NCBI GenBank assembly: GCA_039805785.1
Contig: JBDLTN010000001.1
Coordinates: 1-50,381, forward strand
Direction: 5' to 3'
From: Pseudomonadota bacterium
GTDB lineage: Bacteria; Pseudomonadota; Gammaproteobacteria; Diplorickettsiales; Diplorickettsiaceae
DNA: 50,381 bases
In this document: positions 11,568 to 25,188 of the stretch, one piece after another
Layout of the letters: each line of letters begins with the position of its first letter
Numbering within the stretch: position 1 is the first letter of the stretch
Made by a program: the position numbers and the translations under genes
Notes under the pieces: model-generated
What the model was told of the DNA's origin: nothing
The model's database searches: none
Seen by the model: the letters and a program-made list of their open reading frames with translations, nothing else

Positions 11568-11864
11568 ATGAAAATGCAAAGTTTTATCAATTTATTTAAT
11601 GCGATTGAAGAAGATGACAGAGACGCAGTGAAGAACTATATAGCCGCTGGCGGAAATGTAAATGTTATAAGGACGTACGACTGGCAAAATGCTTTACATG
11701 TAGCGGCTACGTATAACCGTTTATATATAGCTGGATTATTATTAAAAGCTGGCTGTGATACCACTGTTAAAGATGAGACAGATGCTACCCCTTTAGAACT
11801 TGCAGAATACTTAGGTCATATTTTGACTGCTAATCTTATAGGACAAAATCAAGTTCAAATATAA
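11568..11864 (+). CDS. Ankyrin repeat protein 1
   Basis: NALHVAA and TPLELA ankyrin motifs. Confidence 0.92.
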   Translation: MKMQSFINLFNAIEEDDRDAVKNYIAAGGNVNVIRTYDWQNALHVAATYNRLYIAGLLLKAGCDTTVKDETDATPLELAEYLGHILTANLIGQNQVQI

Positions 11865-11874
11865 TTGGAGGAAA

Positions 11875-12213
11875 ATGAAAATGGATATAGAACACCTTAT
11901 AGCATTTGAATTAATGCAAGAAGAAAAAAAATTAGCAAAAATTTATTCACAGCTTGGTACCGATGAAGAATGGATAGAATTACATGCTGCGGTTTTTTAC
12001 GGCTTATACCGAATAGTAGAAAAGTGTATTGCATATGGTGCAAATATAAATTTACAAAACGCCATGGGTAATACTGCCTTACACATAGCATGTTTCATGA
12101 GGCGTACATTGATTATAGAATTACTTTTGAGAAATGGCGCTGATGAAACAATTAAAAATAATAAAGGTTATTTACCCGAAGATAGATTGGCGAATGTCGC
12201 TAATAACAATTAA
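11875..12213 (+). CDS. Ankyrin repeat protein 2
   Basis: GANINLQNAMGNTALHIAC. Confidence 0.92.
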   Translation: MKMDIEHLIAFELMQEEKKLAKIYSQLGTDEEWIELHAAVFYGLYRIVEKCIAYGANINLQNAMGNTALHIACFMRRTLIIELLLRNGADETIKNNKGYLPEDRLANVANNN

Positions 12214-12239
12214 AGCTCATAGAGTGATGGGAATAAAAA

Positions 12240-12371
12240 ATGAATGAACGGAAAATGTTAATGATTTTAAATAGACCAAAAGGATTCAGAGCCTTGCAAA
12301 CCATTCAATTAATATTTGGTGGTGTATTGGTACTTTGTGCCGTGATGTTAATAATTGGCGCTTTTAGATAG
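12240..12371 (+). CDS. Small membrane peptide (43 aa, not in ORF track)
   Basis: MNERKMLMILNRPKGFRALQTIQLIFGGVLVLCAVMLIIGAFR; fills the operon gap. Confidence 0.5.
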   Translation: MNERKMLMILNRPKGFRALQTIQLIFGGVLVLCAVMLIIGAFR

Positions 12372-12376
12372 GAGAT

Positions 12377-12868
12377 ATGAAAATGGATATATTCGATTCA
12401 GTAATCAATAATGATATTGAAGCAATTAAAAAATATATAGCTGATGGCAATGATATTAATGTTACGGATACTTTTGGCAATAGCTTATTACATTATGCTA
12501 GTTATAGAGGAAATCATCCATTAATCCATTTATTATTTGATGCTGGCATAAATGTAAATGCGCGTAGTATCCTGGGAAGTACTGCTTTGTTTACAGCAGT
12601 TCTCAAAAATGATCGAGCAACGGTTCAATTATTAACAGCCATTGGCTTAAATATTAATCATATTAATGACGATCACGGCGGCACTCTCTTACATTTGTTC
12701 GCAGCTTTGGGTCGTTTGGATTGTGTACAAACATTGTTAGAGATAGGAATAGATACAACTATTCTTAACCTAAAGGGTAAAAAGGCAATCGACTGTGTAC
12801 CTGAAGGATATAATGCAATAATAAGATTATTAGAAGCGCACGAAGCTAAGACTGGCGCAACTCATTAA
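12377..12868 (+). CDS. Ankyrin repeat protein 3
   Basis: GNSLLHYA, GSTALFTA, GTLLHLFA. Confidence 0.95.
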   Translation: MKMDIFDSVINNDIEAIKKYIADGNDINVTDTFGNSLLHYASYRGNHPLIHLLFDAGINVNARSILGSTALFTAVLKNDRATVQLLTAIGLNINHINDDHGGTLLHLFAALGRLDCVQTLLEIGIDTTILNLKGKKAIDCVPEGYNAIIRLLEAHEAKTGATH

Positions 12869-12899
12869 CAAACAACATTACATTTAAGGAATAACAACA

Positions 12900-13175
12900 A
12901 TGAATAAATTATTAATTATATTAACTATTACAACAATTCTAATCGCATCAGATGCGGACACATTTAATAATGAAATATTTGATCGTCCTACCTATAGCTT
13001 TTCTGGTGATCACAACGTATTTCCTTCTTCATTTAAACTAAATGATCAGCACGGTATGTTTCCATCTTCATTTAAGCTAAAGGGTAATCATGCTTTGTTT
13101 AGCACTCGATCAAAAGAAACAATTGTTGTTGATAAACAGCCTGACGATTTAGCTAAAAATAGGAGTGAGAAATGA
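12900..13175 (+). CDS. Putative secreted protein with short internal repeats
   Basis: Signal-like MNKLLIILTITTILIAS; FPSSFKL x2. Confidence 0.65.
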   Translation: MNKLLIILTITTILIASDADTFNNEIFDRPTYSFSGDHNVFPSSFKLNDQHGMFPSSFKLKGNHALFSTRSKETIVVDKQPDDLAKNRSEK

Positions 13176-13381
13176 TGAATGACAAAGAAAAAACTGAAAT
13201 AGATTTGGCTAATCAACTAAATATCATAAATGAACTTGTGCTTGAGTCCATAACTAATCTGCGAGAGTTACAAAAGTTTCGTGTAAAATTGATGATATTA
13301 AGAATTTCAGAATGGGTTTGTCTAGGCACAATCGCGTTGTACACAATTAAACTAATCATAATAGCTTTTGGGCTTGCATAA
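13172..13381 (+). CDS. Small protein with C-terminal TM helix
   Basis: AGGAG RBS; hydrophobic C-terminus. Confidence 0.65.
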   Translation: MMNDKEKTEIDLANQLNIINELVLESITNLRELQKFRVKLMILRISEWVCLGTIALYTIKLIIIAFGLA

Positions 13382-23371: not shown

Positions 23372-23778
23372 ATATTTTTGATGCAATTGAAGATAAGGAC
23401 ATTGAATTTGTTAAACAATACATCGCTGCTGATAATGATATTAATGTCGTAGATGAAGACGGCGCTAGCTGTCTTCTATATTCAATAAGATTTAATTGTA
23501 AAAAAATAGCTAAATTACTTCTTGAAGCTGGCATAAATATTGATATAAAAGATAAATATGGCAAAAATGCTTTGTATTATGCCAAATTCTTTGATAATAA
23601 AGATATTGTAGAGTTACTTACACCTAAATCTTTACCAAAAGTAAATACCGCCGAAGAACTGCGTAAGAAACAAATCGAAAAACTTGGAAAACTTATGTCT
23701 AAATCTTCAAATTTGGACTTTACTACAAAAGTAATACATGGATATCTGGAATTAATTGAAATACTCAAGAATCAATAA
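23368..23778 (+). CDS. Ankyrin repeat protein 12 with non-ankyrin tail
   Basis: MNIFDAI N-cap; DKYGKNALYYA. Confidence 0.9.
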   Translation: MNIFDAIEDKDIEFVKQYIAADNDINVVDEDGASCLLYSIRFNCKKIAKLLLEAGINIDIKDKYGKNALYYAKFFDNKDIVELLTPKSLPKVNTAEELRKKQIEKLGKLMSKSSNLDFTTKVIHGYLELIEILKNQ

Positions 23779-23781
23779 TTC

Positions 23782-24177
23782 TTAATCTGTTTTTTGTTTT
23801 TTGATAATCACATTATATTGCGAATTGATTTTGCGTTTTAAATTATTTCGTGATACATAACTTATTCCATCAAACCAACCATTTATACTGCGAGGCATTT
23901 CAGCTGAATCAATTGAATCAAGATACTTTTTTAAAAAATCAAATACATCTTTTAAACAACATAAATCGGTTTCATCATTGTCAGCTTCAAATAAAAGTTT
24001 TTGATAAAAAGCATTGGGCACAAGAAAAGCAGTCAGTAAATCTCTAACTTGCTTAATTTCAACAAACACTGATTCAGGCTTTAAATAACAATTAAAAATA
24101 TTCTTTTCTAAGCCAGCAAATTCTTTTTTTAAATTAACTACTGAACTTTTTAAATCTAAATATTTTTGATTATCCAT
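23782..24177 (-). CDS. Hypothetical protein
   Basis: 131-aa ORF, AAGGT RBS. Confidence 0.7.
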   Translation of the reverse strand: MDNQKYLDLKSSVVNLKKEFAGLEKNIFNCYLKPESVFVEIKQVRDLLTAFLVPNAFYQKLLFEADNDETDLCCLKDVFDFLKKYLDSIDSAEMPRSINGWFDGISYVSRNNLKRKINSQYNVIIKKQKTD

Positions 24178-24183
24178 TTATTA

Positions 24184-24411
24184 TTATCTACCTTTTGCAA
24201 AAATTAAGGCCAAACTACAAAATAATATAAATAAGGCTGCTATATCGTCAATCAATACTTCGGTATATTGATATTGAACAGCCGCAAAAAAAGCACTTAA
24301 AGCCACATACGTACTCTTTAGTTTTAAACGCCTAATTACATGTTCTTTAAAAGACTTAAACCCTTTAGATTTTTGTTTAGGCATATATTGCACTTTCTTA
24401 TAACAATACAT
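24184..24411 (-). CDS. Small membrane protein (holin candidate)
   Basis: Basic N-terminus and two hydrophobic segments; start possibly at the internal Met. Confidence 0.5.
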   Translation of the reverse strand: MYCYKKVQYMPKQKSKGFKSFKEHVIRRLKLKSTYVALSAFFAAVQYQYTEVLIDDIAALFILFCSLALIFAKGR

Positions 24412-24535
24412 TGGCTTATAATTGAAGCTAACACTTCAATACCTTTTTATTTTAATAAAAGTTAAATTAACTGTCATTAAATAAATCAAAAATATAAACT
24501 CATAATCTAAAATACAGTTTATAATATTTCTTTTC

Positions 24536-24564
24536 TTGCCTAAAGTTTTAATTGTTTGTATTAT
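24536..24564 (+). promoter_or_regulatory. Putative sigma70 promoter
   Basis: TTGCCT-N17-TATTAT upstream of ankyrin 13. Confidence 0.5.
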
Positions 24565-24597
24565 GCTTATAACCTTTAATAACGTGGAATTTAATTA

Positions 24598-25188
24598 ATG
24601 GATATTTTCAAAGCAGCAGAAGCCAATGACATTGAAGCGGTTAAATTACTAATTAAGAATGGGGCAGATCTTAATAACCGACCAGAGTTGCCTTTAATAA
24701 CAGCTATAGAATTAAATAACTTTGATATGGTCAAATTACTTGTGGAAAATGGCGCAAATGTTCATCTGTGGGACAATTACGACAGGCCACCTGTGCATGT
24801 AGCTTGCGATAACAAAAACTTACAAATTTTAAAGTTCCTTGTAGAGAATGGCGCTGATATCGATACTCAACAAGAAGAATCTGACGATTATTTAATACAT
24901 GTAGCGGCAGATAAAGGTAGTTGCGAAATAGCTGAATTCATTTTAGATGAATTTGATAAACTTAATGTTCACAGATATTCAATTATAAATGTAACTAATA
25001 ATGATGGGGAAACACCATTACATAGGGCAGCTGCGGGAGATGATAATAACCCAATGATTGAATGGTTAATTAAAAATGGCGCTAACATAAATAGAAAAGA
25101 TGATTATGGCAACACGCCTATTCAAGAGGCTGAGGAATGGGACAATTTTAAGAACGTTGAAATTCTTAAAAAACATGGTGCTACTTAA
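24598..25188 (+). CDS. Ankyrin repeat protein 13
   Basis: MDIFKAA N-cap; GETPLHRAA; LKKHGA C-cap. Confidence 0.95.
   Translation: MDIFKAAEANDIEAVKLLIKNGADLNNRPELPLITAIELNNFDMVKLLVENGANVHLWDNYDRPPVHVACDNKNLQILKFLVENGADIDTQQEESDDYLIHVAADKGSCEIAEFILDEFDKLNVHRYSIINVTNNDGETPLHRAAAGDDNNPMIEWLIKNGANINRKDDYGNTPIQEAEEWDNFKNVEILKKHGAT

Follow-up and report, generated by a model that had tools for sequence, protein, structure and literature searches.

Among phages, a few that infect symbionts are known to carry ankyrin genes, and expanding ankyrin families have been described in giant viruses of eukaryotes. We describe here a stretch of 50,381 nucleotides (nt), called the window below (contig JBDLTN010000001.1 of GenBank assembly GCA_039805785.1), which is a tailed-phage genome with 13 small ankyrin-only genes (ank1 to ank13) at positions 11568–25188. 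Bases 1–203 are repeated with one mismatch at 50179–50381 (a 203-bp assembly overlap, without strand, that marks a circular contig), so the contig is a complete circle, of 50,178 bp.

The closest described systems share parts of this arrangement. Phage WO (Wovirus; KX522565.1 and PMC9203015, the latter available in part, as are the sources marked 'in part' below) is likewise a tailed phage, and some of its multiple ankyrin genes are small and stand-alone. However, several of the eight ankyrin genes annotated in the 65.7 kb of WOVitA1 (KX522565.1) are large or carry PRANC or TPR domains, whereas the 13 genes here are small and lie in the replication region. Phage WO uses a serine recombinase for integration and encodes a patatin (PMC9203015, in part), neither of which was found among the 65 open reading frames (ORFs) of this phage, which has a GH108 endolysin instead. 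It also has a eukaryotic association module, whereas none of the ankyrins here has a PRANC or other second domain above cut-off. MAnkyphage, from the alphaproteobacterial protist symbiont Ca. Megaira polyxenophila (annotation of OP381185.1), is also circular and has small stand-alone ankyrins situated ahead of the terminase block, close to a replication initiator, but it has two ankyrin genes (in 38.4 kb), encodes a patatin, a resolvase and Bet, and is absent from the top hits obtained with the terminase of this phage. Sponge Ankyphages encode a small ankyrin protein, ANKp (10.1101/608950, in part), but two of the Ankyphage ANKs carry an N-terminal signal peptide and are presented there as probably secreted, and that part of the source describes no paralogue array. 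The stand-alone ankyrin Bd3460, which inhibits bacterial endopeptidases (PMC4686830, in part), and Imm-ank, described with leucine-rich repeat (LRR) immunity proteins (PMC3482391, in part), block or are predicted to block a bacterial enzyme and serve as our working model. Each guards the cell that makes it from a cognate enzyme or toxin, whereas we recognised no toxin family among the neighbours of the 13 genes, several of which are unannotated. In Bodo saltans virus, an accordion of tandem, recently duplicated and variable ankyrin genes (PMC5871332, in part) is read as the product of an arms race; that giant eukaryote virus has 148 copies at its genome ends, whereas here putatively coupled cassettes stand in a 50-kb phage. 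Designed ankyrin repeat proteins (DARPins; PMC3308923 and PMC8229355, both in part) have capped 33-residue repeats, a fixed scaffold and six variable positions that coincide with those described below, but they are engineered; here the proteins are natural, the near-uniform scaffold is confined to 4 of the 13 genes, and the binding role is predicted from sequence. The phage is not a Wovirus, and its ankyrins are neither secreted proteins of the ANKp type nor members of a known effector or defence family. Of the known systems, it may be most like the Bodo saltans virus accordion, in miniature and inside a bacteriophage.

All 13 ORFs are intact, and together they occupy 6,528 bp, or 13% of the genome. 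Eleven are on the plus strand: ank1 (11568–11864, 98 amino acids (aa)), ank2 (11875–12213, 112 aa), ank3 (12377–12868, 163 aa), ank4 (13787–14131, 114 aa), ank5 (16338–16910, 190 aa), ank6 (16907–17578, 223 aa), ank7 (17575–18099, 174 aa), ank8 (18749–19144, 131 aa), ank11 (22718–23371, 217 aa), ank12 (23368–23778, 136 aa) and ank13 (24598–25188, 196 aa). Two are on the minus strand: ank9 (19154–19783, 209 aa), which encodes a basic protein, and ank10 (19784–20386, 200 aa). The initial annotation, made from the letters alone, had listed 13 ankyrin ORFs of 98–223 aa on both strands, and all 13 pass the Pfam ankyrin cut-offs, which none of the other 52 ORFs among the 65 scanned does. Eight begin with M[ND]IF, one of them (ank3) after MK, and here the ORF translations match what had been claimed. 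Signal peptides and catalytic domains had been described as lacking, and our results agree. No hydrophobic N terminus was found (best 15-residue Kyte–Doolittle mean at most 0.95, a measure of hydropathy only, as SignalP was not run), compared with 2.2–3.4 in five ankyrins of another viral contig, G098. All non-ankyrin Pfam hits in the 13 proteins fell under cut-off, and no PRANC or other effector domain, F-box included, rose above it. An AlphaFold model of ank6 has 14 helices that form seven repeats (pLDDT 94.5) and nothing beyond them, and it matched viral ankyrin models with TM-scores of up to 0.96. Four proteins (ank5, ank6, ank11 and ank13) stop at the C-terminal cap (C-cap), leaving no space for an effector domain; ank8 and ank9 carry basic C-terminal tails.

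The main new result is that the ankyrin genes vary from strain to strain. The ankyrin region was present in 20 of the 22 sequencing runs listed, from 15 studies. We compared seven runs, three of which were deep enough (X3 from groundwater, X4 from sludge and X5 from wastewater), each with long pieces about 97–99% identical to the genome; in X6 and X7, two runs of low depth, we did not count uncovered stretches as absence, and the joints given here are among the joints listed (15 of 51 and 15 of 35). Strains 97–99% identical in the flanks differ by lost, swapped or fused ankyrin genes. In X5, a joint of 11561 to 11869 cleanly deletes ank1 across 15 shared nt, ank3 is skipped, and ank5, ank6 and most of ank7 are replaced by an in-frame 62-codon remnant (fusion of 16353 to 17973); this strain departs from the reference sequence ahead of ank13, after 24514. 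X3 has ank1 and ank13, skips ank2 (joint of 11863 to 12223), ank3 and ank5, and contains mosaic genes, different parts of which have their best matches in different paralogues. The 34-kb contig of X4 has ank1, ank2 and ank4, skips ank3 and joins 16336 to the start of ank7 (17574, at the start codon). At their reference places, ank3 and ank5 are missing in all three strains, and ank4, ank9 and ank10 are kept in all three, the presence of ank9 in X4 being based on a shorter allele from a contig matched to X4 by length. Some joints sit on shared start sequences (the 15 nt of 11561 to 11869 and the start codon of 16336 to 17574). Two length changes take out a net 99 nt, equal to one repeat, one of them with a 20-letter short side; joints with a short side of 20–32 letters within ank5, ank6, ank7 or ank11 may be artefacts of best matching between paralogues, and we gave them little weight.

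We also found near-identical alleles of ank1, ank2, ank4 (seven cluster members), ank8, ank9, ank10 (seven full-length alleles, 98–99% identical), ank12 and ank13 in protein clusters, where broken gene copies cannot appear. In this collection ank3 was found from the reference contig only, and the exact sequences of ank5, ank6, ank7 and ank11 had no match. Alleles of ank2 differ in the C-terminal tail, and in some alleles of ank9 27 residues are absent or the tail is altered. The initial annotation had named, as a result that would refute its reading, that most copies are unexpressed and decaying; decay was not borne out for ank1 and ank4. In X3 (one strain; 40 of 478 table rows), six single-nucleotide polymorphisms (SNPs) are listed for ank1 and the 5' half of ank4, and five of them are synonymous (P about 0.003, judged against site counts). 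The neighbouring non-ankyrin ORF at 12900–13175 differs in 13 codons among the rows listed, and 10 of these specify another residue.

Four of the genes, ank5, ank6, ank7 and ank11, are recent paralogues with protein identities of 50–63%; the first 279 nt of ank7 are 85% identical to ank6, and ank11 has 79% nt identity to ank5 over 433 nt. The remaining nine ankyrins have at most 40% identity to any partner (best-scoring listed alignments of at least 90 residues). The internal 99-bp repeats are 57–88% identical to each other. We compared 16 internal repeats of the four paralogues, having excluded one mis-registered repeat of 17 (ank7, residue 97). Their six most variable positions are positions 2, 3, 5, 10, 13 and 14, which are the ones randomised in an engineered ankyrin library (PMC3308923, in part), and the six-residue surface signatures of all 16 repeats are distinct. 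The rates of non-synonymous (pN) and synonymous (pS) difference were 0.52 and 0.62 at the six surface positions and 0.18 and 0.49 at the other 27, which form the scaffold; by this measure the scaffold of the four paralogues is purified and the surface freer.

The same four genes have coding tails that contain GGAG and end in an ATGA with which the following gene begins, either an ankyrin gene or the gene for an ERF single-strand annealing protein (18096–18707, plus strand; PF04404). This C-cap coding tail lies at 16887–16910 (plus strand) in ank5 and recurs at the ends of ank6, ank7 and ank11, so that ank6 overlaps ank5, the ERF gene overlaps ank7 and ank12 overlaps ank11 by ATGA. Such tails would be expected to couple translation of adjacent genes. 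A motif of the form TTGTTY–17 nt–TATAWW stands before ank1 (TTGTTT, 17 nt, TATAAA; 11494–11529, plus strand) and again before ank5 (16274–16309, plus strand). These two copies are the sole ones in the genome at up to three mismatches, and the motif is a candidate promoter. A scan for consensus promoters returned 82 sites against 84 expected, which is chance level, so our promoter calls use the repeated motif only.

The initial annotation had supposed that so many small pure binders are unusual. At 0.26 ankyrin genes per kb, the density in this phage is the highest among the viruses examined, the next being 0.16, and we did not find an ankyrin array of this sort in a tailed phage in the literature searched, outside which subscription papers or supplements may hold per-phage counts. 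A similar density being common in this phage group had been named as the finding that would refute this, and it did not hold. Among relatives found with the major capsid protein (45735–46634, minus strand), 2 of 35 viral records have an Ank_2 match, and none of the 10 near-complete ones has ankyrins. In one relative, the fragment G063 (capsid 75% identical), two ankyrins are clear and a third is weak, and there is also a BspA-type LRR gene. Capsid flanks totalling 1.65 Mb, most of them without the early region, were scanned as well and added two further ankyrin ORFs, both in locus L118. In L118 (positions 1–2801), from a distant relative (capsid 39%), these two genes, one of 408 aa, lie upstream of the portal gene and adjoin an ORF that resembles IS605 TnpB by eye. 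Another relative, G072, has a 153-aa partial major capsid paralogue outside the head module (L190:4895–5356).

The phage is not unique, as other multi-ankyrin viral contigs exist, also outside its family. Of 75 loci fetched with these ankyrins, 13 have at least three ankyrins. G099 (L385–L386) is a complete 44.5-kb contig with a terminase and seven paralogous ankyrin genes, G102 (L358) is a 34-kb phage contig with five, and G070 has four. G098 (L388–L390; L311) is a complete 150-kb viral contig (no match to Terminase_6N) whose 21 ankyrin genes are arranged in tandem blocks; five of them have the signal-like hydrophobic N termini mentioned above and about ten share another N-terminal module. 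Among 50,697 deposited phage records, ank6 matched 29: 13 of Wolbachia, six of Mycobacterium, three of Leptospira, two each of Acinetobacter and Enterococcus, and one each of Megaira, Mollyvirus and another source. The Mycobacterium prophage ankyrins among these are annotated as toxin immunity proteins. A search for ank6 homologues gave generic ankyrins only, the capsid alignment found no relative among GTDB genomes, and an 18-nt N-cap pattern found 20 loci in IMG/VR, none with an ankyrin ORF.

The initial annotation had suggested that the ankyrins may inhibit bacterial defences or be effectors aimed at the eukaryote housing the host. We tentatively favour, with less than even confidence, the reading that the small ankyrin-only proteins act inside the infected cell, early in infection, as inhibitory binders of bacterial proteins, and that the set of 13 genes, which differs between strains, is reshuffled by recombination between sequences they share. 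The ankyrins would be expressed early from the promoter-like sites and translated in a coupled manner through the GGAG...ATGA tails; the ERF protein would act as a recombinase that exchanges shared ankyrin sequences; and the proteins would bind and inhibit bacterial targets (host defence proteins, toxins or other enzymes) that vary with the host strain. The ankyrin genes flank and overlap the ERF gene and follow a gene resembling helix-turn-helix (HTH) replication initiators (Rep-like; 21602–22696, plus strand; a weak match to phrog_428), which lies directly upstream of ank11. We favour bacterial targets because of this location among recombination and replication genes, because export and effector parts and signs of lysogeny were not found, and because stand-alone ankyrins such as Bd3460 and Imm-ank inhibit, or are predicted to inhibit, bacterial enzymes and toxins; the annotated Mycobacterium prophage ankyrins are a further precedent. 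The PADLOC models Ankyrin, MzaA and PDC-M72A gave no full-length match; only the ankyrin stretch of these 392–880-position models was covered.

Several observations weigh against this reading. Ankyrins are rare in deposited phages, and 14 of the 29 ank6-matching records are phages of the endosymbionts Wolbachia or Megaira, which fits a eukaryote-linked role. Near-complete relatives lack ankyrins (0 of 6 at 54–72% identity and 0 of 4 at about 44%), three of the G102 ankyrins adjoin a GH108 lysin 46% identical to that of this phage, and our search found no literature on phage ankyrins as anti-defence proteins. Several strain joints have no homology at the junction (11863 to 12223 and 12370 to 12886). 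Variability at the six surface positions is generic for ankyrin repeats, and surface pN (0.52) is not above pS (0.62), so positive selection on the binding face was not detected. The RNA run X18 covers 28 of 30 bins, intergenic DNA included, and shows an adapter-like loose end, and so cannot indicate transcription; run X16 is probably DNA and is unusable for expression.

It is possible that the ankyrins instead act on the eukaryote that houses a symbiont host, either exported by the secretion system of the bacterium or freed at lysis, and block digestion of the infected bacterium or aid virion exit. Known ankyrin-bearing phages, such as WOVitA1 with its eight genes and MAnkyphage with its two small ones, are mostly symbiont phages. 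ANKp of the sponge Ankyphage dampens macrophage responses (10.1101/608950, in part), and two ankyrin proteins from Wolbachia bind proteins of the fly (PMC13170367, in part). The relative G063 combines its BspA-type LRR gene near two ankyrins with an SSB that matches plasmids of Ca. Paracaedimonas, the basic tails of ank8 and ank9 would suit such a role, and the strains come from groundwater, sludge and wastewater runs. Against this, the 13 proteins have no hydrophobic signal by hydropathy and no PRANC, F-box or other effector domain, their best score against the Dot/Icm T4SS_Ank models of NCBIfam is 124 bits against a cut-off of 600, and the genes lie in the replication region, away from the lysin: the GH108 endolysin gene (35877–36350, minus strand) is in the virion block, 10.7 kb from the nearest ankyrin gene. 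Export signals of symbiont hosts need not be hydrophobic. This, the predominance of symbiont phages among ankyrin carriers and the position of the G102 ankyrins beside a lysin keep a eukaryotic target close behind the bacterial one.

The contig is the largest in a 1.5-Mb, 91% complete bin (G000) whose 16S (85% to the rRNA of Legionella adelaidensis) and RecA cluster are gammaproteobacterial, and which may be Rickettsiella-like. We rejected G000 as the host, having found no integration, spacer or shared-gene link. Its tetranucleotide correlation with the phage is 0.31 (other contigs mostly 0.6–0.8), its other contigs have no DNA match to the phage and its proteins only generic ankyrin hits, none of 60 relatives of G000 has the phage capsid, and 30 family genomes held no spacer-like match, only short AT-rich or ankyrin matches. 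The phage contig appears to be mis-binned; contigs C44 and C53 of the bin also have low correlations (0.29 and 0.32).

Five relatives have an SSB gene, and none was recognised in this phage genome. An alignment of four of these SSBs gave 80 listed hits (in 2 of 64 collection parts), of which 73 were to Alphaproteobacteria and none to Gammaproteobacteria, and an alphaproteobacterial host is likely for the phage family on this evidence. Three of the top four hits of the G063 SSB are plasmids of the amoeba symbiont Ca. Paracaedimonas, which makes a protist-symbiont host plausible, although the top hit, at 49%, is barely above a free-living acetic acid bacterium, at 48%. The SSB tree was mostly unresolved and placed the gammaproteobacterial-looking SSB of G070 beside a Holosporaceae row, so we did not use it for order-level host calls. 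This weak support for a symbiont host counts against a eukaryotic target. Profile scans recognised no integrase or repressor family among the 65 ORFs, and all 120 capsid homologues listed are on contigs of at most 60 kb where length is given, which suggests that these phages do not integrate; together these two results give no indication of a lasting, secreting lysogen.

A further reading, which we consider unlikely, is that one or a few acquired ankyrin genes were amplified as a by-product of repeat-driven recombination, such that the core of ank4, ank9 and ank10 matters and the rest are nearly neutral. Each of ank1, ank2, ank3, ank5, ank6 and ank13 is missing at its place in at least one of the three strains, the 99-bp internal repeats, at 57–88% identity, invite unequal exchange, surface pN/pS is below 1, and ank9 has alleles with 27 residues lost or the tail changed. 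However, none of the 13 ORFs is broken and the set takes up 13% of the genome, the SNPs of ank1 and ank4 in X3 are mostly synonymous whereas those of the neighbouring ORF mostly alter residues, two length changes equal one whole repeat and the X5 fusion is in frame. About as unlikely is that the ankyrins bind proteins of the phage itself or of competing phages (in self-protection, in timing of ERF, Rep or lysin, or in exclusion of co-infecting phages), as the overlap with ERF, the adjacency to the Rep-like gene and the protection from a cell's own enzymes by Bd3460 (PMC4686830, in part) might suggest, because relatives have homologous ERF genes without ankyrins, and the ankyrin beside ERF and Rep varies between strains, a poor fit to a fixed partner.

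The rest of the genome is that of a tailed phage. It encodes a portal protein (163–2664, minus strand) and a terminase large subunit (3875–5488, minus strand), as well as the capsid, an SU10-type adaptor, tail fibres, the GH108 endolysin, GroES, ERF and the Rep-like protein. The Rep-like protein had no match among plasmids, and the phage genome none in Rfam. The non-coding stretch before the Rep-like gene (21050–21575) contains a 29-nt inverted repeat (21497–21573) and short repeated palindromes and is a candidate origin or operator. The GroES-like co-chaperonin gene (49215–49610, minus strand) lies in the head module and is conserved across the phage family. A 264-aa protein (10434–11228, minus strand) matches PADLOC PDC-M02B models over residues 1–80 (E about 1e-8), and a longer homologue is present in G063; the rest of the protein presumably resembles a small-terminase-type protein. 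Unannotated Gly/Gln-rich proteins of the virion block (27539–34057 and 43342–43938, both minus strand) have common short 'xGG' motifs (YAHGG, FKKGG), are kept in relatives and are possibly ejection proteins. Three neighbouring excisionase/AlpA-type HTH genes (5835–7148, minus strand), one with several HTH repeats, stand in this genome without a recognised integrase.

We regard as doubtful a wider picture in which a small lytic phage infects a eukaryote-associated bacterium and carries a natural binder library. In it, self-coupling cassettes, with a C-cap tail that provides the ribosome site and start of the gene behind it, would be swapped and recombined repeat by repeat by ERF, and each strain would have a panel of inhibitors of its own, directed against host defences or the eukaryote. 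Here, a 50-kb phage spends 13% of its genome on ankyrins, and its wild strains differ in the set they carry. These proteins, which are small, soluble-looking and easy to express and to use in pull-downs, and which comprise a conserved core and a variable remainder, offer a natural comparison set for what phage ankyrins bind. Eukaryotic targets would mean a three-way arms race run by a phage with no sign of integration; bacterial targets would make ankyrins a new scaffold for phage counter-defence.

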